64,000 nucleotides of DNA from Minisyncoccota bacterium. GTDB lineage: Bacteria; Patescibacteriota; Minisyncoccia; Phycocordibacterales; UBA9973. The translations under genes were made by a program, and so were the position numbers. Location of the stretch: NCBI GenBank assembly GCA_041664285.1, contig JBAYLA010000001.1:68889-132888 (forward strand), read 5' to 3'. Shown here one piece after another: positions 6,381 to 61,719 of the stretch. The notes beneath the pieces were generated by a model. The model searched no databases and was not told the DNA's origin. It worked only from the letters and a program-made list of their open reading frames with translations. How positions within the stretch are numbered: the first letter of the stretch is position 1; the number at the start of each line of letters is the position of its first letter.

Positions 6381-6580
6381 TTAGATTATTAATTTAACTA
6401 AGATAGCGTCGTGCTTTAGTGGACATTATGCGACGTGATTCTGCAAAATCATATGGGAAAAGGAAATAATTCATATCGAAAGGATGTAAAAAAACCCAAG
6501 AAAGCAAAAAAGAAATAATTGAGAAAGGTCGATTACTGTTTTTTAATTTTTTTAAATATCTCGCTTTTATTAATCGTTGC

Positions 6581-7959: not shown

Positions 7960-8571
7960 ATGTTAGGGTTTACAAAAAAGGAATTGGTGTTAATGAAGAA
8001 ATTAAATACACCAGCCAAGGTGCAGGACTTTTTGAACAAACTTCAGTTCAATTTCGAAGAAAAAGGGGAAACATTGAAATCTCCGATTTTAGCTCTAAAG
8101 GCACGACAAGCCCATTGTTTTGAAGGAGCGCTTCTGGGGGCTTATATATTGTCTCTGCAAGGTTTTACCCCCTATTTGATGCATTTAAAGGCCACTAAAG
8201 AGGATTTTGACCATGTGGTCGCTCCTTTTAAAGTAGAGAAATATTGGGGTGCTTTATCTAAGACTAATCATGCGGTTTTGCGTTACCGTGAGCCTATTTA
8301 TAGAAATATTCGCGAACTTGCTATGTCTTATTTTCATGAATATTTTTTAAATAATGGGGAAAAAACATTGAGACAGTATTCTGCACTTCTTAATTTAAAT
8401 ACTTTGAAAAAAAATTGGGGCATATCACCAAAAGATCTTTGGTCTATAGATAAAAAATTAGATAAAATACAACATTATAATATCGTGCCACAATCTTATA
8501 TCAAGAAACTCCGAAAATCAGACAAGGTAGAAATAAAAGCAGGGGAGATTACAGAGTTTAAAAAATACTAA
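7960..8571 (+). CDS. hypothetical protein
   Basis: 203-aa ORF whose 3' end overlaps the convergent gene by 14 nt. Confidence 0.35.
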   Translation: MLGFTKKELVLMKKLNTPAKVQDFLNKLQFNFEEKGETLKSPILALKARQAHCFEGALLGAYILSLQGFTPYLMHLKATKEDFDHVVAPFKVEKYWGALSKTNHAVLRYREPIYRNIRELAMSYFHEYFLNNGEKTLRQYSALLNLNTLKKNWGISPKDLWSIDKKLDKIQHYNIVPQSYIKKLRKSDKVEIKAGEITEFKKY

Positions 8572-9376
8572 AAATTTTATCCCAAAATCTTCTCCACCAA
8601 GTATTTTTTGTAGTTTCATTTTGTGCGGGAACAGAAGGAACAGAATTTGCAATTGATGTAGTATTTTTGTCTTTAATTTTGTTTATTTTTTTAGGTTGCT
8701 CTTTAGGGTTTGCAGGCAAGATATCTCCCCCTTCTTCTTCAAAAGTTGTATTTGAAGAAGAAGGGGGAGTAAGTGTTGGATAAACAAGCAAAGGGGAAAG
8801 AATAAAAGAAGTACATGGTTGGCCAGTGGTTATGCTAAATTTTTGTCCTTGTTCGCAGATAGTATTTAATATTATATATCCGCTACCTCCACTATTACTG
8901 TGGGTAGAGGGGGTTTCTGGCTCTGGTTCTGGTATTTTGTTTTCATCTCCAAAATACAAAACAACATTTTCTCCTCCAGATAAAATTTCCGAATCCATTC
9001 CTACGCTTGGGCTAACATTATTTACTTTGTATTGCCAATTATCACACAAATCGGATCCAGAGACGTTGATACATTTCAAATAAAAAGCTCCAAACATATC
9101 ATAATAAATCAAATTAGAGATATTAAAATCTCCACTCAAAGTGTCGGCTGTATTTACTATCGAGAGCACACTGTCGGCCTTTGTATCGTGAGGACTTCCG
9201 CTTGAGTCATTTATACTGATGGTACCAGCTCCGAGCAAGGGTATATTTCCGGAATAAACAACATCACCGTTATTTTTTACAGTTAAATTTACATTTATTC
9301 CATCAGCTAGAGCAAACTCACTTCCTCCTGTTAGTAATATTAAAGCAATCCAAACACTCATTAAAATTTTTTTCAT
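8558..9376 (-). CDS. secreted DUF4430-like (transcobalamin / intrinsic-factor beta-domain-like) protein with Pro/Ser/Thr linker
   Basis: Signal peptide. NLTVKNNGDVVYSG ... DNWQYKVNNVSPSVGMDSEILSGGENVVLYFG matches the DUF4430 pattern (W.Y.VNG...G....l.dGD.v.f.y). The C-terminal half is PEPEPETPS-rich. Confidence 0.5.
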   Translation of the reverse strand: MKKILMSVWIALILLTGGSEFALADGINVNLTVKNNGDVVYSGNIPLLGAGTISINDSSGSPHDTKADSVLSIVNTADTLSGDFNISNLIYYDMFGAFYLKCINVSGSDLCDNWQYKVNNVSPSVGMDSEILSGGENVVLYFGDENKIPEPEPETPSTHSNSGGSGYIILNTICEQGQKFSITTGQPCTSFILSPLLVYPTLTPPSSSNTTFEEEGGDILPANPKEQPKKINKIKDKNTTSIANSVPSVPAQNETTKNTWWRRFWDKIFSIF

Positions 9377-9389
9377 ATTTTAATTTAAA

Positions 9390-9580
9390 AATAAAAAAAC
9401 TCCTACCGAGAGGAGTCGACAAATCAAGACATTAAGACTTGATAATTCCTGCTCGGGACAAATAAAATGATTGGTATTCGGACTTGTTCCTCCAATTTTA
9501 GTTGGAAGGACTTACCGTAGCGGCACTGTACTGGAATTCCTGCCTGCGTAGGCGGGTCACCAGTTTCCCCAATCAATTCT
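9390..9580 (-). ncRNA. candidate cobalamin riboswitch with intrinsic terminator (expression platform) leading into the 8558..9376 gene
   Basis: GC-rich island in an AT-rich intergenic region. The minus-strand RNA reads GGGGAAACUGGUGA...GGAAUUCCAG...GUGCCGCUACGGUAAGUCC...AAGUCCGAAUACC. The closest fit to the remembered consensus is CCGCUACUGUGAG plus the terminal AGUCAGGAAACCUGCC. It ends with the terminator GACUCCUCUCGGUAGGAGUUUUUUU about 15 nt before the ATG. Confidence 0.5.
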
Positions 9581-9592
9581 TATAATTTTCAA

Positions 9593-10084
9593 ATGAACTC
9601 TCTTAGTATATACTTACCTCATATTATGTCAAAGGAAGATGTGGATACTAAAAAAATAGCCAGAGAGAAGCTGGTAAAAATAATGGTTTTTGGAACTTTT
9701 GACGGATTGCATCCTGGGCATATTAATTTTTTCCAACAGGCAAAAAATCTTTCTAAAAGTTCATTTTTAATTGTTTCAATTGCTAGAGATAAAAATATAA
9801 TAAAAATTAAAGGGAAAAAATCAACACTTTCTGAAAACGAAAGATTTAATTTAGTAAAACAAAATAAGTTTATAGATAAGGTTGTTCTGGGAGGGAAGGT
9901 CAAATATTTACCCCATATTATAAAAGAAAAACCAGATATTATTGCCCTTGGTTATGATCAAAAAGATTATGTTGAAAATTTAAAAAAAGATCTTAAAAAA
10001 AATGATATTTTAATAAAAATTATACGTTTAAAGCCTTATAAGCAAAAAATTTTCAAAAATAGCTTACTAAAATCAAAAAAATAA
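9593..10084 (+). CDS. cytidylyltransferase-like nucleotidyltransferase (FAD synthetase N-domain / TagD-like)
   Basis: GTFDGLHPGHINFF is the (H/T)xGH nucleotidyltransferase motif. Confidence 0.6.
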   Translation: MNSLSIYLPHIMSKEDVDTKKIAREKLVKIMVFGTFDGLHPGHINFFQQAKNLSKSSFLIVSIARDKNIIKIKGKKSTLSENERFNLVKQNKFIDKVVLGGKVKYLPHIIKEKPDIIALGYDQKDYVENLKKDLKKNDILIKIIRLKPYKQKIFKNSLLKSKK

Positions 10085-10186: not shown

Positions 10187-11620
10187 ATGGATAAAGTAAA
10201 AGTTAAAAAATCAAAAAAAATAAAAAATAAAAAAAGACCAAAGAAGAATTGGAAAAAGTTTTGGAAGTTAGGGATGGAAGAGTTTAATACCCAGTATTTT
10301 GACGTTAGCCAGAACGGTGATTTGGTGGTTAAAGAGGGATACTATCAATATAATATTATGGATATTATTAAAAAATACGGCACCGTAACCCGAGTGTTTT
10401 TTCCGTTTATTCTAGAGAACCGGGTGCGAGACTTGATAGAACTTTTTAACGCTTATATTAAAATTTTAAATTACCGTGGAAAATTTTATTATCACTATGT
10501 GATGAAATCCAACCAGAATAGTGATTTTGTTTTGCCGGCTATTGCGGAAGGAGCGCATATTGAAGTTTCCTCCGCCAACGAACTTTTTTTAGTAAAAAGG
10601 ATGCTGGAAAAAGATAAATTTAACCGTAAAATAAGGGTTACCTGCAACGGACCTAAAACTGAACAGTATATAAGTTTAATTGAAGAGCTTCGTGAAAAAG
10701 GTCTAATAGTTATACCCATTATAGAAAACGGAGAGGAACTGGAAAGGCTTAAGAAATTTAAAGGAGAAGTGGGAGTACGAGTAAATCTTAATCTTAAAGT
10801 TGATGCGCACTGGGACAAAAAATATAACCACTTTGGTTTTGCCGAGGAAGAGTTGATTAAAATCAGCAAAATCAGGAACCTTTCCATGCTGCATTATCAT
10901 ATTTCCACGCAAAATGAAAAAATAGAGGGATTTATAAAGCCTCTCAAGCGCGCGATTGATCTTTATGCCAAATTGAGACAGCACAATCCAAATCTGGACA
11001 CGATAAACTTCGGTGGCGGGATGGCTGTGCCTTATGAAAAAAGAAAAAAATTATTTTCCGTGAAAAATTTAGTTCAGCAAATGATTAAAACTGCCAAAAG
11101 AGAAAGCGACAAATTGGGAGTCCGGCATCCGAGTCTGGTTTGTGAATGGGGCAGTTATTTTACCGCTCCTTCTCAAATTACCATTTTTAAGATTTTAGCT
11201 GAGAAAAATATTTTCAAGAAACCTGACACTAAATGGTATTTTATTGACGGGTCTTTTATCGCGCATCTGACCGATACATGGTCTCCTGTTCACCACAAAT
11301 GGCATTTTGCGACAGCCAACCATTTAAATACCCGCCGACTTCAAAAAGTATGGCTTGCTGGGTCTACTTGTGACTCAGATGACCGCTATACCGCTTCCGG
11401 AACTTATGTGTTATTACCGAAATTCACCGAAGATGTTCCAGATTTGTATCTAGTAGTTTTTGACACAGGTTCTTATCAAGACACCTTTGAGAACAACCAC
11501 TGCTTGATTTCCAAGCCGGCGATGGTAATTTGTCAAAATGGACAAGTTAAACTGTCTCGCAAAAGACAAACACCGGAAGAAATCGGTAAACTCTTTGGCT
11601 GGAACGGAGATCATAAATAA
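10187..11620 (+). CDS. PLP-dependent fold-III (Orn/DAP/Arg) decarboxylase, probably arginine decarboxylase
   Basis: YHYVMKSNQN carries the PLP-lysine; GAHIEVSSANEL is also present. An agmatinase gene follows. The real start may be the internal Met (MEEFNTQYF). Confidence 0.55.
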   Translation: MDKVKVKKSKKIKNKKRPKKNWKKFWKLGMEEFNTQYFDVSQNGDLVVKEGYYQYNIMDIIKKYGTVTRVFFPFILENRVRDLIELFNAYIKILNYRGKFYYHYVMKSNQNSDFVLPAIAEGAHIEVSSANELFLVKRMLEKDKFNRKIRVTCNGPKTEQYISLIEELREKGLIVIPIIENGEELERLKKFKGEVGVRVNLNLKVDAHWDKKYNHFGFAEEELIKISKIRNLSMLHYHISTQNEKIEGFIKPLKRAIDLYAKLRQHNPNLDTINFGGGMAVPYEKRKKLFSVKNLVQQMIKTAKRESDKLGVRHPSLVCEWGSYFTAPSQITIFKILAEKNIFKKPDTKWYFIDGSFIAHLTDTWSPVHHKWHFATANHLNTRRLQKVWLAGSTCDSDDRYTASGTYVLLPKFTEDVPDLYLVVFDTGSYQDTFENNHCLISKPAMVICQNGQVKLSRKRQTPEEIGKLFGWNGDHK

Positions 11621-15374: not shown

Positions 15375-15863
15375 ATGAAACAAAAAAAATTTATAGAAAA
15401 AATAATTACTGGTATAGGATCAGTGCCTTCACTTATTGCACATACATTTTTGTTTGGTTTAGCTTTTATTTTGTCTTTTTATCATGTTATTTCTTGGGAT
15501 GTAATGCTCCTTACTCTAACAACAATTGTGTCATTAGAGGCGATTTATTTAGCTATATTTATTCAAATGTCTGTAAACAAACAAACACAAGAGCTTGCAG
15601 AAGTCAGTGAGGACGTCGATGAAATTCAAAAAGATGTTGATGAGATTCAAGAGGACGTCGATGAAATTCAAAAAGATGTTGATGAGATTCAAGAGGACGT
15701 CGATGAAATTCAAAAAGATGTTGATGAGATTCAAGAGGACGTCGAAGAAATTACTGAAGAAACCGAAGAAGAACGCATAAAAGCCAGGTCAATTAATATT
15801 GAACAGTTGGCACAAGATTTAAGGAAAATACTTACGGACCTAGAACAATTAAAAAACAAATAG
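15375..15863 (+). CDS. DUF1003-like membrane protein with acidic tandem-repeat tail
   Basis: Two N-terminal TM helices followed by repeats of (E)DVDEIQKDVDEIQ. Confidence 0.5.
   Translation: MKQKKFIEKIITGIGSVPSLIAHTFLFGLAFILSFYHVISWDVMLLTLTTIVSLEAIYLAIFIQMSVNKQTQELAEVSEDVDEIQKDVDEIQEDVDEIQKDVDEIQEDVDEIQKDVDEIQEDVEEITEETEEERIKARSINIEQLAQDLRKILTDLEQLKNK
15609..15752 (+). repeat. 42-nt in-frame tandem repeat, 3.4 copies
   Basis: gaggacgtcgatgaaattcaaaaagatgttgatgagattcaa repeated exactly three times, then a diverged partial copy. Confidence 0.85.
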
Positions 15864-16064
15864 TTTTTATATGTGGATCGTACAGGAATCTCTCCCTCGA
15901 CTAAAATTTTTTCGTCAAAAAATTTTATCTGGCACACTCTCATAATTTCGCAAGTTTGCGAAATATATTCTGGGTTTTCTCGTCCTGACGCAAGCAAAGC
16001 AGTTTGCTTGCTTACAGTCTCCTGCAATAAAAAAGCCATCTTACGATGGTCTTTTTTATACACG

Positions 16065-16137
16065 TGGACCGTACAGGACTCGAACCTGCCACCCCCTCAT
16101 TGCAAATGAGGTGCTCTACCAGATGAGCTAACGGCCC
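16065..16137 (-). tRNA. tRNA-Ala(TGC)
   Basis: Reverse complement GGGCCGUUAGCUCA...CCUCA-UUUGCAA-UGAGG...GGUUCGAGUCC...ACGGUCCA with the G3:U70 Ala identity pair. CCA is not encoded. Confidence 0.85.
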
Positions 16138-17587: not shown

Positions 17588-17644
17588 AGTTTTTTTGATT
17601 TTACGAAATCATGCCGCGCAATCGTCCATTAAAGCGTGGCGCTA

Positions 17645-18849: not shown

Positions 18850-20142
18850 TTATTTATTAAACCATTCCTTTATAACACTTTCTGCAGGTTTGTTGCGAAA
18901 AGTTGAAGCTACAGATAATTTGGGTTTAATTTGTGGGTCAAGTGCATCATCCCAAGCAAAGCTGGCAACATTTATTCTTTCTATGTTGTTCAATGAAGGA
19001 AGAGCATTAAAAAAGATTTCAAATACTTTTGCCTGATAATTAAAATCTGAAATTGCATTTTTTACTTTTTCACTTTTATAATCAAGTACTTCAAGAGGCC
19101 CATATTTCATAGAGTTAACATAAGAAGATGGTGCAAAAAAGATTGAAAGCTTAATTTCTTTTTTCTTGGCAATGTTATTTAGGTCTGTTAAATATTTAGG
19201 TATTTCTTTTTCAATATCTCCATTACGATAATGTTCTAATAAATCATAAATACGAATTTCTACAATATCAGCATTTTTGTAATAATTATATTTTGTCCAA
19301 TCTTCTTTCCCGTCTTTGTCTTCAAAAAACCCATAGAGAGATAGTTCAACATAAACTTTTCCATTAAAAACTTTCCTTACCTCTTCAATTAATTTTTTTT
19401 GTAATTCATTTACCAATAATTCTTCCCCAGCAAAAGTTGGACCCATCCATGTTGGAGTTATGCTCATAATATCAACACCATATTTTTGATAGATTGAGGC
19501 TTTTTCAACTATTCTAGCAGTCCATTTTTCAAAATAATCCTTTATCCATTCTTTAGTATGCAAAGAATTAAATTTTTTATAATCTGTTTCAACTGTTGAC
19601 TGTATTTCTCCAGAAATTCCTGCAATAATATATTTTCCAATATCAACAAAAGACATATTCCTTTTGATTCCAAGCTCAAGACCGTTTTGGTGTGCATTTA
19701 GAACAAGATTTTTTATATCAGACTCAGTCATTGATTCATCTCGCATGTCATTTAAAAAAATTTCGTCACCAATTTTATAACGCGTTGTAGTAAAATCAGC
19801 ATTCTTTTCAAAGATTGCTCGATCGAAATCATGTACATATATTTCACTTGCCCCAAGCTCTTTTACTCTAACAAAAGATGACTCAATGTTCTGTCGAGTA
19901 CTTTCAACCATGCTCATATTATAATTTCTACCCCAAGTGTCGGACATATTAACTGCTTTTATTTGAGGAAGATGTATAGCATTTGTATTTACTAAATATT
20001 CATTACGAATAAAAATACCACTACACCAAGGTGGAGTAGGCCAAGGGCCAACAGGAGGGCAAATTTTTAAAATAAACATAACACTAACTGCAATAATAAG
20101 TATTAAAATAATGCCAATAACAAAAATCAAAAATTTTTTCAT
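18850..20142 (-). CDS. membrane-anchored hypothetical protein (possibly a TIM-barrel hydrolase-like fold)
   Basis: N-terminal TM with a 400-aa extracytoplasmic body. Confidence 0.45.
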   Translation of the reverse strand: MKKFLIFVIGIILILIIAVSVMFILKICPPVGPWPTPPWCSGIFIRNEYLVNTNAIHLPQIKAVNMSDTWGRNYNMSMVESTRQNIESSFVRVKELGASEIYVHDFDRAIFEKNADFTTTRYKIGDEIFLNDMRDESMTESDIKNLVLNAHQNGLELGIKRNMSFVDIGKYIIAGISGEIQSTVETDYKKFNSLHTKEWIKDYFEKWTARIVEKASIYQKYGVDIMSITPTWMGPTFAGEELLVNELQKKLIEEVRKVFNGKVYVELSLYGFFEDKDGKEDWTKYNYYKNADIVEIRIYDLLEHYRNGDIEKEIPKYLTDLNNIAKKKEIKLSIFFAPSSYVNSMKYGPLEVLDYKSEKVKNAISDFNYQAKVFEIFFNALPSLNNIERINVASFAWDDALDPQIKPKLSVASTFRNKPAESVIKEWFNK

Positions 20143-20251
20143 TTCATTTAGTATACACTAAAACTATTTAGATTTGAACTTCTTCTGCCCTTAGAGAGGT
20201 AGGGGAAACAACCATTATAAAATATGGTTTAAATACTTCTAGAAATAATGG

Positions 20252-20698
20252 CTAACTTTGCATCTCAGGAAACATATTTTCCTCCTTGGCTCTTTTGACT
20301 AGAATTGAATAATAAACTAAGTTTTTAAAAATCACTTCTTTATTTTTATCATAATTTATAACCTCATCGATTATTTGTTTTTTTGTTAGGGCATCTACTT
20401 TTTGTTTATGGACAGGAGCAAAAGAATCAGGCACCTTAATAATTTTTTCTTCTTTAGGTCCCTTTAAATGACGATTGGGATTCATAGAATTACTTACAAA
20501 ATCATCGAATTTTTCTAATTTTTTTTTAAATTTCTCCTTTCTTTGTTCTTCTTGTTTCTTTTTTAGGGCTGAAACACTAATCACTTCTCCGCTGCTAAAA
20601 TTATCCTCTAATTTTCTAGGTTCTTCTTTTGGTTTTAATTTTTTTTTAAGATTTTCACCTTTCGAAAAATTGATTATATTATTCAACTTATTTTCCAT
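20252..20698 (-). CDS. Lys/Glu-rich hypothetical protein
   Basis: 148 aa, highly charged. Confidence 0.35.
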   Translation of the reverse strand: MENKLNNIINFSKGENLKKKLKPKEEPRKLEDNFSSGEVISVSALKKKQEEQRKEKFKKKLEKFDDFVSNSMNPNRHLKGPKEEKIIKVPDSFAPVHKQKVDALTKKQIIDEVINYDKNKEVIFKNLVYYSILVKRAKEENMFPEMQS

Positions 20699-20710
20699 GT
20701 TTTAAAGATT

Positions 20711-20872
20711 TTAATTTAAAAGTGAAAAAGTAATACCTAAATAATATGGCCAGAGAATTAATGCCAATACTCCTTTCCAAAAAGTTAAATGTAAAAAACC
20801 TATTGTAAAAAGCCAAGCTGCAAACCAAAAACCTCCGGCAAACATATGATTTTCAATTTTAATTTTTTGCAT
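20711..20872 (-). CDS. small membrane protein, paralog of 20887..21072 (not in the ORF table, 53 aa)
   Basis: Translation MQKIKIENHMFAGGFWFAAWLFTIGFLHLTFWKGVLALILWPYYLGITFSLLN. It shares FWKGVLALI(I/L)WPYYLG with its neighbour. Confidence 0.4.
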   Translation of the reverse strand: MQKIKIENHMFAGGFWFAAWLFTIGFLHLTFWKGVLALILWPYYLGITFSLLN

Positions 20873-20886
20873 AACTTGTTATTTTT

Positions 20887-21072
20887 TTATTTTGATTCTT
20901 CTTTTTGGCTATATTCTTGGTGAAATTTTACTCCCAAATAATAAGGCCAAATTATTAAGGCTAGAACTCCTTTCCAAAAGGAAAGCTTCAAATAACCTAT
21001 CGTAAAAAGCCAACCGATAAACCATATTGAGCAAAAGAAACCCTCTTGATTGTTGATAATTATTTTATCCAT
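20887..21072 (-). CDS. small membrane protein (61 aa), tandem paralog
   Basis: MDKIIINNQEGFFCSIWFIGWLFTIGYLKLSFWKGVLALIIWPYYLGVKF... Confidence 0.45.
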   Translation of the reverse strand: MDKIIINNQEGFFCSIWFIGWLFTIGYLKLSFWKGVLALIIWPYYLGVKFHQEYSQKEESK

Positions 21073-21121
21073 ATTTTTTTTAATTAAAACTACTAATAAT
21101 CAGATTATAGCATATATTTAA

Positions 21122-22507: not shown

Positions 22508-22590
22508 GGAAATAATTATATCAAAAGGTTATAATTTCTACTAAGCTTACCTTTTTTGAGGGTGACGATTCTCGGATAATTACCATGTTA

Positions 22591-24150: not shown

Positions 24151-25278
24151 TTAACTTTTGTATTTTTCTATATCCTTCTTTGCTTTTTTAATAAATTTTC
24201 CAAATCTATAATCTTTTTCATTTCTTTCAACTTCTGTCATTTCATAATATTCAGCTTCTTTTTTTAAATTAATATAATTAGAATATTTTCCTTCATTTAA
24301 ATTACCAGACTTTAAAGCAAATAATACACTACATTCAGGCTCAGAAGTATGAGAACAATCAACAAATTTGCAATTCATAGCTAATTTAGTTATTTCATCG
24401 AAAACATTATCTACACCATCATTAGTATTAGTCATTCCTACTTCTCTCATTCCTGGATTATCTATGACGATACCTCCATTTTTTAAAAAATACATCTCTC
24501 TACCAGTAGTGGTATGTTTACCTCTGTTGGTGTGAAAACTTATATCGTTTGTTTCTATGGCATTTTCTTCGAGTAATTTATTAATCAAAGATGATTTACC
24601 TACACCAGAGGATCCAAGAAAACAATATGTTTTACCTTTTAATATGTACGTTCTTAATTCTTCTAACCCTACATTAGTTAAAGCACTAGTCAAAATGATA
24701 TCAACATTTTTGAATCTATTTTTTATTTGAGCTAATTTCAAATTTAATTCGTCTTTAGAAATTAAATCAATTTTATTTAAAATAATAGTGGACTGAACTC
24801 CTCCGTCGTTGGCTATAGCAAAATATCTTTCGAAACGATTTAAATTAAAATCTCTATCAATTGACTCTATAATAAAAGCAATATCAATATTAGTTGCAAT
24901 AATTTGAATTCCATTTTTATTATTATATTTTCTTTTGATTAATGTTTGTTTGGGTAATATCTCAGTAATTACCGCCCATTCATTATCTTGCTCTTTTATT
25001 GAGACCCAATCTCCCACAGCAGGGTAATCTTCCCTTGATGAGGCATCGAATATTTTTTTTCCAGTTACTTTTGCAAAATACTCGCCACTTGAATTTTTTA
25101 TCTTATAGGCTCCTTTGTATTCAGCGATAACTCGCGCAACAGAAAATTCATCCAATTTCAATTTCTTTCTATTAGATTCAAAGTATTCATTATAACCAAT
25201 ATCTTCATTTTTTATTTCTTTCACAAATTTAATTTTATCACAAATTCGAACTTTTTTTCTTTCTGAATATACCCACAA
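24151..25278 (-). CDS. rsgA: ribosome small-subunit-dependent GTPase A
   Basis: GSSGVGKSSLINKL P-loop, circularly permuted GTPase order, and a C-terminal Zn knuckle CKFVDCSHTSEPEC. TTG start. Confidence 0.85.
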   Translation of the reverse strand: MWVYSERKKVRICDKIKFVKEIKNEDIGYNEYFESNRKKLKLDEFSVARVIAEYKGAYKIKNSSGEYFAKVTGKKIFDASSREDYPAVGDWVSIKEQDNEWAVITEILPKQTLIKRKYNNKNGIQIIATNIDIAFIIESIDRDFNLNRFERYFAIANDGGVQSTIILNKIDLISKDELNLKLAQIKNRFKNVDIILTSALTNVGLEELRTYILKGKTYCFLGSSGVGKSSLINKLLEENAIETNDISFHTNRGKHTTTGREMYFLKNGGIVIDNPGMREVGMTNTNDGVDNVFDEITKLAMNCKFVDCSHTSEPECSVLFALKSGNLNEGKYSNYINLKKEAEYYEMTEVERNEKDYRFGKFIKKAKKDIEKYKS

Positions 25279-25478: not shown

Positions 25479-26002
25479 TTAAGTAGTTTGCAAACTATCA
25501 TTATATAAAATTTTAAGCTTCTCTAACCCTCGATGTAACTGCACGGCTACGGTGGCTTTGGAAGTTCCGGTTATTAATGATATTTCTTTTATTGATAAAT
25601 CTTGCACATATTTCATGCGCATTACTTTTTTATACATTTCAGGAAGACGCTCGATTAATAAAAGTGCAACCTTGCCGTCTAAAACATTAAATAATCTTTT
25701 AGGATCTTCTGCTTCTGGTTCGAAGCCTTTCTCCATCATTACATCGAGAGAGGTTGTTTTACGTTTTCGATATTCATCTACAATAAGATTATTTAGTACA
25801 TGATAAAGAAAAGCTCTCATTATTTCTATTTTCCCTCCTTTGACCAGATAAATCCAAGTTTTCATGAAAGTATGTTGTACTAAGTCTTCTCCTGTTTCAT
25901 GGTTACTTAGTTTAAAATAGGCACGAGCATTTAAGCCTTTTTCAAAGTTATTGTGGGCTTTAGTCAGTATCCCGTCAAGTCTTTTTTCTCTTTCGGGGTC
26001 AT
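25479..26002 (-). CDS. ECF-type RNA polymerase sigma factor, interrupted by an apparent frameshift in an A6 run
   Basis: Region 4 HTH VQDLSIKEISLITGTSKATVAVQLHRGLEKLK. Region 2 (GEDLVQHTFMKTW) continues upstream in the same frame with no ATG. The ATG at 26002 (MTPKEKKDLTGY*) is in the adjacent frame, and the two join if the gagAAAAAAgac run (25982-25987) had one more A. Confidence 0.6.
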
Positions 26003-26317
26003 TATATTGAAGCCGTTTGGGGCTCTATTATGTTACCTCTTTATTACAAGAGATATTTTAATAATGGAAATATTCAGTTTTTATAGGGGCAGTAGGGGGA
26101 ATCCGTTTTTGAGATAGTTACAGAGGAATTACGCTTGGGCACTAGATAGTTGTGTTTTTCAAGTTAATTAACTTTAGCACGTATGTAGTCTAATAGCTAG
26201 TCGTAACAATTAGTATTTATGAACGGCATTATAGTTAAGAAAAAGAATAAGGTCGATATTATTCAGGAAACAGTGACGAGAGGTAAATAAAGTTTATTAA
26301 ATAAAATAAAAAATAAT

Positions 26318-32367: not shown

Positions 32368-32838
32368 TTATATTTTTCCAACAATTACTACATAATTTTT
32401 ACCATATTTTTTAGCACATTTAGGACAAGTGGTATACCACATATATGTTTTTTGAACTACTATTCCTTTATCTTTGGTATAGCTTTCAAAATCCTTCATC
32501 CATTTTCCTGTATCTTTAAAATTTCCTTCATATACTTTACTTAAAAATTTTCCACTTAAAAATACATTCTCTAAATTCGGGATGTCTTTATCTGTTGCTA
32601 AATATAAATCCATGTTCCATTTTGAAGTGTGGTCACTTAAAAGCATTCCATCAACCATAGTGGCTCCTACTTCTTCAAATTTCTTACACAATCGTGTCAT
32701 CACCGAGCCAAAATTAATAGGCATATAAAATAAAGTAAAAACTTTATTTTTAATGAACTTTTTATTATTCCATTCAAAAACCCTTTCGTCCCAAGGGGCG
32801 GGATCAAATTTTGGACAACAAATTTTTTCTTCGTTCAT
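32368..32838 (-). CDS. hypothetical protein
   Basis: 156 aa, no motif assigned. Confidence 0.35.
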   Translation of the reverse strand: MNEEKICCPKFDPAPWDERVFEWNNKKFIKNKVFTLFYMPINFGSVMTRLCKKFEEVGATMVDGMLLSDHTSKWNMDLYLATDKDIPNLENVFLSGKFLSKVYEGNFKDTGKWMKDFESYTKDKGIVVQKTYMWYTTCPKCAKKYGKNYVVIVGKI

Positions 32839-33037
32839 ATGATTTTTATTTTAAGTTAATAATAAAAATTATATCATAGGTTCGACACTAAATATAAATT
32901 AAAAATTTTGCAATCAACGGATTTACAAATTATTGACAATTAAAAATAATTGTGTTAAAGTTAATCGAAGTTTGTCAGGAGTTGTCCTTTAATAATAAGT
33001 TTTTAATTAAATAAAAATAGCTAAGAAGGAGATAATA

Positions 33038-33751
33038 ATGAAGGGAGCTAGATTGAGACTTAAAGACCACGGAGATTTCTCGCCATATTTAAAGGAAATT
33101 TGTCAATTTCCTCTTTTATCGAGAGATGAAGAAACCGCACTGGCTAAGCATAAAGAAAAAGGAAAAGAAGAAGCCCAGGAGAAAATGACAAAAGCCAATC
33201 TTAAGTTGGTTGTAAGTATCGCAAAGAAATACAAAAATCGAGGATTACAATTCTTCGATTTGGTCCAAGAAGGTAATATCGGCTTGATGAAAGCTGTTGA
33301 AAAATTTGATTGGACGAAAGGATACAAATTTTCTACCTATGCGGTGTGGTGGATTCGGCAGGCCATCCAAAAGGCATTAGCCGATCAATCAAGAACTGTT
33401 AGAGTTCCAGTGCATATGGTTGAAAAGATTAATTGTCTAATTCGTGCTTCTCGTGATTTTGTCCAGGAGTTTGGTCGTGAGCCAACTCCCGAAGAAATCG
33501 CCAAGAAGACGGAATATTCACTAGAAAAAGTGATGGAGATATTAAAAATCTCCAAAGGAACTATTTCTTTTGAGACTCCCATAGGGGAAGAAGAGGACTT
33601 AACCTTAGGAGACTTTGTGGAAGACAAAGAAAGTGGAGATCCGCTTTCTTTGTCTGTCAATGTTGATTTAGAGGAAATTGTTAGAAAAACTCTTTCAACA
33701 TTGAGGACGCCGGAGGAAAAAGTTATTAGACTTCGTTTTGGCATTTGCTAG
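33038..33751 (+). CDS. sigma-70 family sigma factor (regions 1.2-3 and start of 4.1) terminating before the region 4.2 HTH
   Basis: Region 2 [13 protein letters not shown]...[18 protein letters not shown]...[13 protein letters not shown] and region 3 [12 protein letters not shown]. The ORF ends ...[12 protein letters not shown] where homologs continue into the -35-binding helix-turn-helix. A hairpin terminator follows. Confidence 0.65.
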
Positions 33752-34550: not shown

Positions 34551-34635
34551 ATTATATATCTTGTAATTGTTTTAAACAAGAAATTTAATATTTATTTTGC
34601 TCCGAACTTGGGAGGATGTTCGAAGGGCGATAATA

Positions 34636-35256: not shown

Positions 35257-35311
35257 AAAAAAATTATATCATAGGCTCGAACTTCTACTAAGACAGGGGA
35301 AACCTAATTGA

Positions 35312-35716
35312 TTAAATATTATTAATATTTTCTTCAATGTTTTTCCAATTCCAAGCAGTCCAAACAATGAATAAGACACACGCGATTTCTACAACTGAGA
35401 AAAATACATAATAAATAGTCGGTATTCCAATAAATAACGTTAAAATCTGAACAGCAACCATTATTGTACCAGCAATGATATTTGCCCAGCGATTTATTTT
35501 ATATTTCAATATACGAGAAAGGAGAATCATAACTATCGGAATTTCCATCAGTATGGCAGCCCCTAATAAAAATCCTTGAGTGAGCTGTGGACCTGTTTGT
35601 TTAATAGGGTCTATTAGTGTTATAACATCACAGTAAAGATAATTGAACATTACAAATACCCATAACAACGAGAATTTCTCTTCAATATTTTTTAATTTAT
35701 TCATGTTATTTATCAT
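35312..35716 (-). CDS. hypothetical membrane protein
   Basis: Start moved to the internal Met (MINNMNKLKN). The longer ORF-table start would translate the tRNA-Asn gene. Confidence 0.4.
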   Translation of the reverse strand: MINNMNKLKNIEEKFSLLWVFVMFNYLYCDVITLIDPIKQTGPQLTQGFLLGAAILMEIPIVMILLSRILKYKINRWANIIAGTIMVAVQILTLFIGIPTIYYVFFSVVEIACVLFIVWTAWNWKNIEENINNI

Positions 35717-35769
35717 ATCACAGGTTCGAACTTCTTCTAAGGTAGGGGAAATAAGGTTATTTTCGTTTG

Positions 35770-35841
35770 CTCCGGGGGTAGGGATCGAACCTACGACCAA
35801 TCGCTTAACAGGCGACCGCTCTACCGCTGAGCTACCCCGGA
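35770..35841 (-). tRNA. tRNA-Asn(GTT)
   Basis: Reverse complement UCCGGGGUAGCUCAGCGGUAGAGC...GUCGC-CUGUUAA-GCGAU...GGUUCGAUCCCUACCCCGGAG with a 7-bp acceptor stem. Confidence 0.85.
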
Positions 35842-39080: not shown

Positions 39081-40295
39081 ATGGTCGCGCTTAAATTTGC
39101 CCGCCGTGGCGGGAAGAAAAAAGTAATAAAGAAAGTTAAAGCTGTTAAAAAAACAGTAGTAAAAAAAATAGTTAAAAAAGCTACAAAGAAAGTAGTAAAA
39201 AAAGTTGCGAAGAAAAAAGTTGTAAAAAAAATCCCATACCCGATTAAAAAATTTAAGGGTAATCCAATTGCTGGTCCAGTTCCTAATTCATTTTGGCAAT
39301 CAGAAGCGGTATTTAATCCAGGGGCGGTAGTGCACGATGGACGTATACATCTTTTTTATAGAGCGCTTGGAGGTGATGGTCTGTCGCGTATTGGTTATAC
39401 TTCAAGCAAAGATGGTATTCATTTTGATGAAAGACTTTCTTATCCAGTTTTTGTGGCAGAAAATATAAACGAAGCACAAGACCATTATCCATATACTTCT
39501 CCAGCTCGTCTTGTTTATAATCCTGTACTTTACGCTTCTGGTGGTGGGTGGGGTGGATGCGAAGATCCACGAGCAGTAAAAATTGATGGCCGAATATATC
39601 TTACCTTCAATATGTTTAATGGGTGGGAATCTATGCGAGTAGCTTTTACTTCAATTGACGGGAAAGATCTATTGGAAAAAAAATGGAACTGGAGTCAATT
39701 TGCTTATTTGTCTCGTCCTGGTGATAGGCAAAAAAATTGGGTTTTATTTCCAGAAAAATTTAATGGTAAGTTTGCGCTTTTTCATAATCTGGATCTGGGA
39801 GATTCTTCTCGAGTGCACATTAAGTATTTGGATGAGCTTAATATGTACAAAACACCAACAAGACAAACAGGAGCACCAGACGTACAGATTTTACCAGATC
39901 ACGTAGTTGCTTGGCATAATCGTACTCGTAGTGCCTCAGCGCCACCAATAAAAACTAAAGATGGCTGGCTTTTATTTTATCATGCGATGGATAAGGATGA
40001 CCCAAATCGTTACAAGGTTGGAGCACTTTTACTTGATCTTAAAGATCCAACAAAAATTCTTTATCGAGCTTCTCGTCCGATTTTAGAACCAGATGAGTGG
40101 TATGAAAATGATTATAAACCAGGAGTGGTGTATGCTAGTGGTGCGGTCGTGAAAGACGGAACATTGTTTCTTTATTATGGCGGGGGAGACAAACATATCG
40201 CTGTAGCATATGTTAATTTAAAAGAATTTCTTAATAAATTAAAGAGTGGTGGAAATGCGGTTTTTTCAAAGAAAAAGGCTGCTTTGAAAATATAA
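39081..40295 (+). CDS. GH130 family glycoside phosphorylase / DUF377 (beta-1,4-mannoside phosphorylase-like) with Lys/Val-rich N-terminal tail
   Basis: FNPGAVVHDGRIHLFYRALG, GCEDPR, APPIKTKDGWLLFYHA and YYGGGD. The first 55 aa are a KKVxKKV repeat. Confidence 0.7.
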   Translation: MVALKFARRGGKKKVIKKVKAVKKTVVKKIVKKATKKVVKKVAKKKVVKKIPYPIKKFKGNPIAGPVPNSFWQSEAVFNPGAVVHDGRIHLFYRALGGDGLSRIGYTSSKDGIHFDERLSYPVFVAENINEAQDHYPYTSPARLVYNPVLYASGGGWGGCEDPRAVKIDGRIYLTFNMFNGWESMRVAFTSIDGKDLLEKKWNWSQFAYLSRPGDRQKNWVLFPEKFNGKFALFHNLDLGDSSRVHIKYLDELNMYKTPTRQTGAPDVQILPDHVVAWHNRTRSASAPPIKTKDGWLLFYHAMDKDDPNRYKVGALLLDLKDPTKILYRASRPILEPDEWYENDYKPGVVYASGAVVKDGTLFLYYGGGDKHIAVAYVNLKEFLNKLKSGGNAVFSKKKAALKI

Positions 40296-40299
40296 TTTT

Positions 40300-41262
40300 A
40301 TGTACGTAGTAAAAAGATCTCATCGCAATCCAATTTTTGTTCCATATAAAGACCATTACTGGGAGGATTTTGCCACTTTTAATATGAGTGTCATTAAAAA
40401 AGGTAAAATGTTATATGGCGCATATCGTGCTATTGGCGCATCCGATATATTACGTACACCACAGCAGATTTCCGTTATAGGTTTGGCGAAGAAAGGTGAA
40501 GGTCATAACTATTTTAAAAATGCTGTGCCTTTTATCGTCCCAGAAGAAGAATGGGAAAAATACGGATGTGAAGATCCTAGGATTACTTTTTTTGAAGGTA
40601 ATTATTATATATTTTATACTGCACTTTCAAAATATCCATTTGAAGCTAGTGGAATTAAGGTTGCCGTAGCAATTTCAAAAGATTTTAAAAATATTAATGA
40701 ACGTCATTTAATAACACCTTTCAATGCTAAGGCAATGACACTTTTTCCTGAGCGTATTAATGGAAAAATTACAGTAATCGTGACTGTAAATACAGATATG
40801 CCTCCGTCGAAAATTGCCGTAGCACAAGTTGATAAGATAGAATAGTTATGGAATCAAAAATTTTGGGAAAAATGGTATGCAAAAATAGACGAGCACGCTG
40901 TCGATTTTAAAAGATTTCCATCTGACCATGCTGAAATTGGTGCTCAACCTCTTAAAACTCGCTATGGTTGGCTTCTTCTTTACTCCCATATCCAAAATTA
41001 TTTCTCTGGAGGGAATAATTCTAATCGTATATTTGGGATTGAAGCAGTTCTACTTGATTTAAATAATCCACTTAAAATTATCGGTCGGACGAGCGGTCCT
41101 ATTTTAGTACCTCGAGAGTCATATGAACTTTTAGGCCATGTTCCTAATATAGTTTTTCCTTCAGGCGCAATTTTAGAAAAAGATACACTTTTTATATATT
41201 ATGGAGCAGCAGATACTACGACCTGTTTGGCTCATGTAAATTTAACTGATCTTATAGGAACG
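40300..41262 (+). pseudogene. GH130 paralog 2, interrupted by an in-frame TAG at 40843-40845 and lacking its own stop
   Basis: The N-half is HRNPIFVP...GCEDPRITFFEGNYYIFYTA. After the TAG the same frame continues with WYAKIDEH...PLKTRYGWLLLYSH...IFIYYGAADTT, the C-half of the same domain. It then runs directly into the third GH130 copy. Confidence 0.55.
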
Positions 41263-42255
41263 ATGAGACCAGAAACAAGTGCCCGATGGCATTTTAATCG
41301 TTCTTTAAAGAATCCAATTATTTTACCAGACAAAACTCATCCGTGGGAAGCTAAAGCTACTTTTAATCCAGCAGCCTTGAGGATAGGAGAAACAATCCAT
41401 ATATTATATCGAGCACTTTCGGAAGATAATACATCTACTCTTGGCTATGCATCAACTAAAGATGGTTTTACTATTGACGAAAGAAGTTCTTCGCCTATTT
41501 ATGTTCCAAGAGAAGATTTTGAGTTAAAAAAAATTGCCAATGGAAATTCGGGTTGTGAAGATCCGCGATTAACGAAAATAGGGAGTACCATTTATATGTG
41601 CTACACGGCCTTTGATGGTATTGGTCCGCCACGAGTTGCTGTTACTTCTATCACAGAGAAAAATTTCTTATCAAAAAATTGGCAGTGGGAAAAACCGGTG
41701 ATCATAACGCCAGCTGGCTTTGATGATAAAGATACTTGTATTTTTTCCGAAAAAACCAATGGAAAATATTTTATTTTGCACAGAGTAGGTAATGAAATTT
41801 GTGGAGATTACATAAAAACACTTAATTTTAAAACCGAAACCATCCGAAAGTGTATTAGAATTATAGGACCTAGAATAAATAAATGGGATAATGCAAAAGT
41901 TGGGATTTCTGCGCCACCCATAAAAACAAAATATGGATGGTTGCTTCTTTATCATGGTATTTCAAAAAGTAGTAATACTTATCGTCTCGGAGCTGTCTTG
42001 CTTGATCTTAATGATCCATCTACTGTTCTTTCCCGTACTTCTGATCCCATATTTGAACCAGAAGAATCATATGAAAAAATTGGAATAATTAATAATGTTG
42101 TTTTTCCGTGCGGAATGGTTGTTAAACCTGCCAGCCGTGGTGGGGACGATTTGCTTTATATATATTATGGTGGAGCGGATACTGTTGTTGGAGTTGCGAC
42201 CATAGAACTTGATATTCTACTTCGAGCTCTTACTCGAGATATTAAGAAAACATAA
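41263..42255 (+). CDS. GH130 family glycoside phosphorylase, paralog 3 (start set at ATG 41263)
   Basis: FNPAALRIGETIHILYRALS, GCEDPR, APPIKTKYGWLLLYHG and YYGGADT. The ORF-table start at 41227 is a TTG inside the preceding domain's C-terminus. Confidence 0.65.
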   Translation: MRPETSARWHFNRSLKNPIILPDKTHPWEAKATFNPAALRIGETIHILYRALSEDNTSTLGYASTKDGFTIDERSSSPIYVPREDFELKKIANGNSGCEDPRLTKIGSTIYMCYTAFDGIGPPRVAVTSITEKNFLSKNWQWEKPVIITPAGFDDKDTCIFSEKTNGKYFILHRVGNEICGDYIKTLNFKTETIRKCIRIIGPRINKWDNAKVGISAPPIKTKYGWLLLYHGISKSSNTYRLGAVLLDLNDPSTVLSRTSDPIFEPEESYEKIGIINNVVFPCGMVVKPASRGGDDLLYIYYGGADTVVGVATIELDILLRALTRDIKKT

Positions 42256-46276: not shown

Positions 46277-46346
46277 GTTGATTTTGCAAAATCATGTCGC
46301 TCAATTGATTCTGGTGAATCATGTCGCATTCTCTTGTAAATGCGAC

Positions 46347-47039: not shown

Positions 47040-47052
47040 TTAATTTTTTTTT

Positions 47053-47122
47053 GGTACAGAATTTTTGAAGCTTAAAAATTCTTGAAGTTCTCGGCTCGTC
47101 AGCCTCGAAACCCCGCAAAAAG
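47053..47122. repeat. about 70-nt conserved element, copy 1 (second copy at 61638..61708)
   Basis: ggtacagaatttttgaagcttaaaaattcttgaagttctcggctcgtcagcctcgaaaccccgcaaaaag. About 85% identical to copy 2 after two single-base indels. Confidence 0.5.
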
Positions 47123-47156
47123 TTATTGTATATATTTTTTAATTCTGTGTTATTAT

Positions 47157-61620: not shown

Positions 61621-61719
61621 AAAAAAACACCTTTTTAGGGTACAGATTTTTTGAAGCTTAAAAAATCCTGAAGTTTGCTCGCCGACGCTCGCAAAACCCC
61701 CAAAAAAGGTGTTTTTTTA
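61621..61719. repeat. copy 2 of the ~70-nt element, here bounded by perfect 16-nt inverted repeats
   Basis: aaaaaaacaccttttt ... aaaaaaggtgttttttt enclose gggtacagattttttgaagcttaaaaaatcctgaagtttgctcgccgacgctcgcaaaaccccc. Confidence 0.55.

Follow-up and report, generated by a model that had tools for sequence, protein, structure and literature searches.

The question raised by this locus is why the intergenic sequences in front of genes with no common function should share a block that runs up to the promoter, and whether this marks a regulon, as the original prediction proposed, or is the remnant of some other process. Copies, motifs, and gene starts were counted within the window, the 64-kb stretch of the genome that was analysed, which has a G+C content of 33%. 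Each of the six proteins checked is alone or with one other sequence in its 90%-identity cluster, and therefore no close relative is known.

The two best copies of the repeat are on the minus strand on either side of a gene for a DUF6326 membrane protein (PF19851). Copy A (35712–35751) has the block TTTCCCCTACCTTAGAAGAAGTTCGAACC at 35723–35751, starting 17 nt past the 3' end of a tRNA-Asn gene, followed by the extended -10 sequence TGTGATATGAT, 7 nt, and the ATG of the DUF6326 gene (35312–35704), a start codon that is backed by homologues of 129–131 aa covering 98–100% of the query. Copy B (35263–35302) begins 9 nt past the DUF6326 stop codon with the block TTTCCCCTGTCTTAGTAGAAGTTCGAGCC, which continues into TATGATATAAT, 6 nt, and the ATG of a HAD phosphatase gene (PF00702; 34636–35256), the closest homologue of which, at 70% identity, is equal in length (206 aa). 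When the block is written in IUPAC form as TTTCCCCTRYCTTAGWAGAAGTTCGARCC, it has exactly these two matches, on the minus strand at 35274–35302 (B) and 35723–35751 (A), and none in 100 shuffles of the sequence. With the -10 box included, A and B are identical at 34 of 40 positions, or 85% over 40 nt (repeat family D11).

Copy C (20170–20208, minus strand) is 5' of a gene for a 430-aa protein without a Pfam family (18850–20142) and consists of TTTCCCCTACCT, a 9-nt insertion, and then AGAAGAAGTTCAAATCT. The insertion aligns as CTCTAAGGG and the flanking T of TAG has become C, while GTTCAAATC in C stands where A has GTTCGAACC. Copies C and A have in common the exact 12-mer TTTCCCCTACCT and the exact 11-mer AGAAGAAGTTC. 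Going by base composition, we estimate that the intergenic DNA of the window should contain such a pair, an exact C-rich 12-mer and a colinear exact 11-mer after it, about 1e-4 times, and C is therefore taken as a homologue rather than a chance match. The claim that the block is common to three upstream regions thus stands, with A and B as exact matches to the IUPAC pattern and C as a true relative, save that C carries the insertion. Copy D (32868–32885, minus strand), upstream of a Bact_hydrolase gene (32368–32838), has the 3' half only, GTCGAACCTATGATATAAT, and is identical to B at 23 of 24 positions over TCGARCCTATGATATAATTTTT (repeat family D8). It had been described as keeping just GTTCGA, when it actually retains GTCGAACC, and as having its -10 sequence 6–10 nt before the ATG, when TGATATAAT is 29 nt from the ATG there and a second -10-like box, TAAAAT, is found 9 nt before that ATG.

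Two further candidates, sites E and F, were rejected as members of the family, having scores below the shuffled maximum. When 61 upstream regions were compared all against all, only the pairs A–B (25) and D–B (19.5) were above the best shuffled score of 16.5. Site E (22515–22546, minus strand; CTTAGTAGAAATTATAACCTTTTGATATAAT) is the promoter of the Nramp gene, typical of this genome, and its match to B (E = 2.1; pair score 16) is no better than chance. Site F (25236–25253, minus strand; AAAAGTTCGAATTTGTGATAAAAT), upstream of the RsgA GTPase gene, has only the head AAGTTCGAA in common with the repeat, and was not significant in two comparisons (E = 2.8 and E = 0.37), with a score of 13.5 against A. 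Within the window the tally is two full copies, one gapped copy, and one half copy.

Copies A, B, and C start at the same base and the sequence before it is unrelated between them. That they share this first base, together with the 34/40 identity of A and B and the exact 12- and 11-nt runs of A and C, argues for common descent rather than a mere motif. Every copy is found between genes and reads in the sense direction of the gene that follows; as expected by the original prediction, the copies follow gene direction and none is within coding sequence.

The 3' part of the repeat is not specific to it. Of 61 gene starts, 33 have a TATAAT-like box 4–10 nt upstream of the ATG, compared to 7.2% of control ATGs, these being the other, non-start ATGs; the TG extension is present at 13 of the 61 starts and 0.5% of the controls, and a Shine-Dalgarno-like 4-mer at 3 of the 61. 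Since there is almost no Shine-Dalgarno sequence, leaderless mRNA appears to be the rule here, and TGnTATAAT with an immediate ATG is therefore how promoters and leaderless starts are normally laid out in this organism. Both proposals made for the -10 part of the repeat are supported, namely that it is the promoter consensus of the genome and that the genes appear leaderless. The exact sequence TGATATAAT, of which there are 6 occurrences in the window versus 2 expected, had been given as the -10 throughout, which is correct for B, whereas A has TGATATGAT and C has GTGTATACT; in its context the C box reads TGTATACT. All three are TATAAT-like with a TG one base upstream, and the spacers from hexamer to ATG of 7 nt in A, 6 nt in B, and 7 nt in C fit the expected transcription start at ~6–8 nt. 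In a generic scan for -35/-10 promoters of the window, sites were no more frequent than in shuffled sequence. Extended -10 (TGn) sigma-70 promoters of leaderless mRNAs are a close likeness, in having TRTGnTATAAT 6–7 nt before the ATG, no conserved -35, and no Shine-Dalgarno sequence. The -10 part does not differ from that known architecture; it is the extra 29 nt upstream that are outside it.

Two sigma factor genes in the window are themselves unusual. The sigma-70 family gene at 33038–33751 (plus strand) has regions 1.2, 2, and 3, stops at RLRFGIC* in region 4.1, and has a terminator-like hairpin next to it; since it ends inside region 4.1, the -35-binding region 4.2 is missing, which may be relevant to promoters with no -35. 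The same 237-aa sequence is present in NCBI, where it is named a sigma-70 family factor, and in JGI/IMG, Logan, and ENA. At 25479–26010 (minus strand) an ECF-type sigma gene is apparently split, with region 2 residues (HETGEDLVQHTF...) upstream of the first in-frame ATG and a short ORF, MTPKEKKDLTGY*, in another frame, which suggests a frameshift or pseudogene. Apart from these two damaged genes, no DNA-binding regulators were found in the window.

The block upstream of the -10 does not keep a constant geometry. From GTTCRA to the -10 there are 7 nt in A and B, where the block runs directly into the box, and 19 nt in C, where the similarity ends after GTTCAAATCT and the -10, TATACT (20150–20155), lies beyond GTTCAAATC. 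As the -10 of C sits 12 nt further off, GTTCAAA occupies the -35 position in this copy (TTCAAA-17-TATACT). TTCCCCT and AGAAGAA, the two conserved halves, are imperfect inverted repeats of each other (5/7), separated by N5 in A and B versus N14 in C, and both TTTCCCCT and AGAAGTTC are invariant across the three copies. The 8-bp palindrome that had been put forward as a common feature, GTTCGAAC, is perfect solely in A; B reads GTTCGAGC and C reads GTTCAAAT, and with up to one mismatch it has 14 matches in the window versus 14.9 expected, which is its chance frequency. In A and B the block covers about -46 to -18, of which -46 to -39 is TTTCCCCT, and its 5' half is C-rich in a genome of low G+C; UP elements are A/T-rich, which is against the proposal that the block is one.

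Several other identities for the block were considered and rejected. As an RNA element it lacks an Rfam family, compensatory changes, and unusual fold energy: there is no match over the block at gathering thresholds in Rfam 15, copy C is overlapped by only a few matches at E up to 10, with scores far below threshold, and in the predicted fold 74% of cells pair, with zero compensatory changes and z-scores from +1.2 to -1.6. An intrinsic terminator was rejected, as no terminator-like sites were called at A, B, or C. For an ECF-sigma promoter, GAAC as the -35 would place the -10 within coding sequence. The LexA 'Cheo box' has the consensus GAAC-N4-GTTC, where the block instead has GTTC-GAAC. Integron attC sites have RYYYAAC/GTTRRRY cores and a 57–141-nt imperfect hairpin, and here GTTCGAA misfits GTTRRRY, with no partner core and no conserved pairing.

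The window has several further features apart from the repeat. The 16-bp palindrome TGATTTYGYAAAATCA is present at 6436–6451, 17596–17611, and 46279–46294. At two of these sites it lies over a -10 box, of the SOD gene and of the HisRS gene, and the third is intergenic. It has 7 strand-hits versus 0.97 expected, related GATTCCGCAGAATC repeats are found upstream of hisS in the relative L126, and to judge by sequence it looks far more operator-like than the repeat block. An intergenic element of ~80 nt is present at 47046–47127 and 61632–61713 (74% identity) and at 11399–11490 of L126, upstream of pth. It is predicted to form two hairpins with 4–6 pairs showing compensatory changes, has no Rfam match, and could represent a small RNA or regulatory structure not yet described. 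There is a cobalamin riboswitch at 9452–9618 (minus strand; 36.2 bits, above the gathering threshold) upstream of gene 8558–9376, which has a weak DUF4430 match. At 39081–42255 (plus strand) there are three consecutive GH130 (mannoside phosphorylase-like) ORFs, one of them truncated (40300–40845), where L126 has two.

Sites A to F are all within one part of the window, 15331–35960. In L126, which has identities to the window of 75% for PGM, 76% for YceG, and 78% for SIMPL, 212 nt separate the YceG gene from a small basic ORF and the SIMPL gene, while the aligned junction encloses ~20.6 kb in the window; it is on the basis of these spacings that 15331–35960 is regarded as a lineage-specific segment, not present in this relative. 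Outside of it the window contains housekeeping genes. Inside the segment the genes are accessory, with many for stress functions, and code for two bestrophin-like proteins, an FMN reductase, SOD, Nramp, hydrolases, and an ice-binding-like protein; the two damaged sigma genes are also there. At 15588–15773 (plus strand) a tandem repeat with a period of 21 nt (~9 periods, seen as 7 overlapping copies of 60 nt) lies in a coiled-coil DUF948-like gene (15375–15863). Two 92-nt copies (20736–20827 and 20933–21024; 76% identity) lie in 20699–21121, a stretch with no ORF of at least 90 aa, possibly a membrane-protein gene, short or decayed, that is duplicated internally.

The edges of the segment are tRNA genes, tRNA-Ala on the left (16064–16137, minus strand) and tRNA-Asn (GTT) on the right (35769–35841, minus strand). 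The tRNA-Ala gene and a direct repeat of its 3' end together span 15873–16137: TCCTGTACGATCCAC (15873–15887) matches the tRNA-Ala 3' end TCCTGTACGGTCCAC (16064–16078) at 14 of 15 positions, ~190 nt downstream and with a similar trailer, scoring 18 against a null maximum of 13.5, and this repeat looks like an integration-type scar. On the other side, downstream of the HAD gene, there is a degenerate tRNA-Asn fragment running from the T-loop to the 3' end with its trailer (34596–34624, minus strand; TTCGAACATCCTCCCAAGTTCGGAGCAAA), which has CGGAGCAAA in common with the end of the tRNA-Asn of the window (p = 0.0065). The tRNA-Asn gene and this fragment thus bracket 1.17 kb with the order [A, DUF6326][B, HAD]. 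A blind scan of the window for a second tRNA-Asn scar, being of low sensitivity, missed the fragment, which was found through the profile of a repeat family in relatives, described below. No Pfam families of recombinases, transposases, or integrases were found in any ORF of the window. A variable site at the same tRNA-Gln in other contigs has a large serine recombinase in L125 (482–2020) versus a restriction-modification cluster in L123 and L124; the L125 contig is from the same ENA sample as the window.

A strand-specific, unstructured element of ~35 nt, AAATAAGTTCSAACATCGNCC...CCAGC or ...CGGAGCA, is present between co-directional accessory genes on several Paceibacterota contigs, with examples in L016 (3280–3317, 3892–3928, 4422–4460, 7340–7378) and L014 (1712–1750, 3351–3389, 4913–4951). 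In L016, a series of co-directional genes, DUF6326 included, follows tRNA-Asn, with TAAGTTCGAACATCGTCCATTGCTCGGAGCA in the intergenic regions, each of which holds a fragment like the T-loop to 3' end of a tRNA. Three copies there share ~135 nt including the TGATATAAT promoter (nhmmer E = 1e-36 to 1e-42), and two units can be aligned, from the T-loop on and for ~135 nt, with the real tRNA-Asn 3' end and its downstream promoter. One subset of these repeats is demonstrably a duplication of the tRNA-Asn T-loop-to-3'-end and the promoter downstream of it. With a profile built from 11 elements of the family, more copies were found in L014, others in L123, and an independent one in L121 (E = 3e-8), but none in the housekeeping locus L126. 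All of these repeats are intergenic and on the sense strand; how far they lie from the preceding stop codon and from the -10 varies, and they lack a consensus fold. The only significant member in the window, on searching the intergenic DNA of the segment, is the fragment after the HAD gene (E = 9e-4).

The relation of this family to the block itself is more tenuous. The part of the block that reads AGAAGTTCGARCC corresponds to the head of the family, with 10 of 10 positions matching L016, and the promoter of DUF6326 reads TATGATATGATTAAC in L016 and TGTGATATGATAAATAAC in copy A, with the head AAGTTCGAAC identical, but this head of 10–13 nt is the link between the two and alone it is not significant (E = 0.6). 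Block B aligns with the variable loop and T arm of tRNA-Asn at 15 of 19 positions (p = 0.05); for C the comparison is not significant. This alignment and the likeness to the T-loop consensus are suggestive only of an origin of the block itself from a tRNA fragment.

Outside the window, the block was sought in other genomes. A pattern scan of GTDB representative genomes gave 7 single hits, about the chance number, six in contigs at about 50–67% G+C and one in a contig of 41.5% G+C from an uncultured bacterium; those with titled records are from unrelated taxa. In JGI metagenome contigs there were 103 hits, all of them single and never as an A/B pair, the one look-alike, L089, being without a downstream gene; IMG/VR had 4 single hits, and phage BLAST nothing meaningful. 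No genome with multiple copies of the block was found among the GTDB representatives, JGI contigs, and IMG/VR, where the hits are isolated and at chance level, and the source genome is evidently not among them. For an extension of the contig, two ORFs had no record elsewhere and two others matched just short Logan contigs. Nor is the block present upstream of the HAD orthologue (70% identity) in L123–L125, or upstream of the DUF6326 homologues (78–87% identity) in L011, L014, L016, and L121. The neighbourhoods of these DUF6326 homologues vary, and often they share an operon with DUF333 or DUF4386 genes.

These observations bear on what the block is. In our view it is unlikely to be an operator or activator site, made up of TTCCCCT-N5-AGAAGAA and/or the palindrome, that co-regulates the DUF6326, HAD, and 430-aa genes. 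Such a site would be well placed in A and B, since repressors and class II activators bind in the zone that the block occupies there, and the strictly intergenic sense-strand location, the sharp boundaries between unrelated flanks, and the two invariant sequences are all in keeping with it. However, C is shifted by 12 nt relative to its -10 and its half-site spacing goes from 5 to 14 nt, the palindrome is intact in A alone, and 30 nt of conservation is a lot for a single site. Homologues in relatives also lack the block upstream, there is no regulator gene nearby, and the 16-bp palindrome over -10 boxes elsewhere in the genome is the better operator-like motif. The partial copies are complementary, C having kept the 5' part and D the 3' part, which fits decaying duplicates and not a single protein-binding site. 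Neither, then, does the "small regulon of envelope and hydrolase genes" of the original prediction find a basis in the genes downstream of A to C, which share no function, and with few copies, shifting geometry, and none in front of orthologues in relatives, the same applies to a transcription factor site that defines it.

The readings that take the block as a hairpin repeat or as a 3'-end signal have little support. Were it a short dispersed repeat in its own right, of the REP, MITE, or IS200-end type, with a hairpin mobilised in trans and promoters adjoined incidentally, it would be expected to show just such identical 5' ends within unrelated flanks; the copies are all on one strand, AAATAAC is found on either side of copy A, and the insertion in C sits in the hairpin loop and adds two G-C pairs to the stem. 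Yet the hairpin is weak, as the fold statistics above indicate, there is no consistent target-site duplication at B or C, the window has no transposase or RAYT gene, and no multi-copy genome came from the database scans, so that this origin seems quite improbable. REP/BIME sequences are stable imperfect palindromes in many copies per genome; the hairpin seen here is weak and without covariation. Least probable of all is a signal for the 3' end of the upstream transcript, acting in termination, processing, or Rho loading. In its favour, the copies start 9–43 nt past upstream co-directional genes (tRNA-Asn, DUF6326, and gene 20252–20698), tRNA-Asn is without the canonical terminator that is seen after tRNA-Ala and tRNA-Gln, and the block is C-rich in its 5' half, G-poor, and T-loop-like (GTTCRANYC), but there are neither terminator calls at A, B, and C nor an Rfam match or conserved fold, and sequence-specific Rho-loading sites are not the rule.

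The explanation we prefer, tentatively and at somewhat less than an even chance, is that the repeat represents a small family of copied promoter/junction modules within a variable, tRNA-flanked segment of accessory genes in a Candidatus Paceibacterota genome. The 3' part, TRTGnTATRAT, would be an ordinary extended -10 promoter of the organism, from which RNA polymerase would start ~7 nt downstream at the A of the ATG, going by the geometry, to give a leaderless mRNA. The 5' part, TTTCCCCT-RY-CT..AG-AAGTTCRANYC, would be passenger sequence of promoter-bearing single-gene modules, probably with no dedicated regulator, which were inserted or duplicated beside tRNA-Asn, presumably by recombination. 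Insertion of the DUF6326 gene may have left one copy on each side, A and B, with C and D as older, partly eroded copies, and the AAGTTCGARC portion would be what resembles the head of the intergenic repeat family in relatives.

Copying of modules is supported by the confinement of the repeat to a segment that is missing in L126 and that has the tRNA-Ala duplicate and the tRNA-Asn-like fragment, by the position of A and B on either side of DUF6326, whose homologues change context, and by the generic nature of the -10 together with the repeats in L016, L014, L121, and L123 and the similar DUF6326 promoter in L016. Against it weigh the absence of a recombinase or transposase in the window, the non-significant head of 10–13 nt, and the marginal similarity to tRNA-Asn. 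The block is well kept in A, B, and C while their flanks show no similarity at all, a pattern that would imply selection on the block if longer duplications were involved. The three substitutions in GTTCRANYC are all at its degenerate positions, which hints at constraint.

Such modules have parallels in known systems. Putative mobile promoters are highly similar non-coding DNA directly upstream of non-homologous genes in one genome; most families have two members, the upstream neighbours are also non-homologous, and among the mechanisms proposed are mobile elements and duplication through recombination (Matus-Garcia, Nijveen and van Passel 2012, PMC3488235). The repeat described here likewise has non-homologous neighbours, DUF6326 and HAD downstream and tRNA-Asn and DUF6326 upstream. 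It differs in that 40 nt at 85% identity is short of the criterion of that study, at least 50 nt aligned at 80% identity or more, and in the link of the module with a variable tRNA-flanked segment and with leaderless extended -10 promoters.

The second parallel is with the att scars that are left at tRNA 3' ends, the T-loop being a classical crossover sublocation of integrases at tRNA genes. The tRNA-Ala 3' duplicate, the tRNA-Asn-like fragment after the HAD gene, and the L016 repeat, which runs from the T-loop of tRNA-Asn through its 3' end, are all of this kind, although there is no integrase, the bracketed units are only of 1–2 genes and 0.5–1.2 kb, and the block resembles the T-loop region alone (GTTCRANYC), with the marginal alignment in B and none of significance in C. 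Integron cassettes, lastly, are also co-directional single-gene units with a recurring short element between them and differing contexts across genomes; here there are no R''/R' cores, no attC hairpin or consensus fold, and no integron integrase, and the units carry their own promoters. A more far-reaching reading, which we consider improbable, is that Paceibacterota have arrays of promoter-carrying single-gene cassettes beside tRNA genes, joined through short, strand-specific junctions derived from the T-loop to 3' end, TAAGTTCSAACATCG... in relatives and TTTCCCCT...AAGTTCGARCC here, by an integron-like capture without a known integrase, in which genes would arrive with, or receive, a leaderless extended -10 promoter.

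If the repeat is indeed a family of copied promoter/junction modules, it would be a clear example, on a small scale, of a CPR bacterium with a reduced genome and few regulators supplying promoters to newly placed accessory genes by reusing a 40-nt module, in place of evolving promoters or regulators for them. It would also urge caution, in that shared upstream sequence in such genomes need not mean a regulon. The tRNA-linked variable segments with strand-specific intergenic elements, seen on several Paceibacterota contigs, could mean that there is an undescribed gene-capture mechanism in the Patescibacteria.
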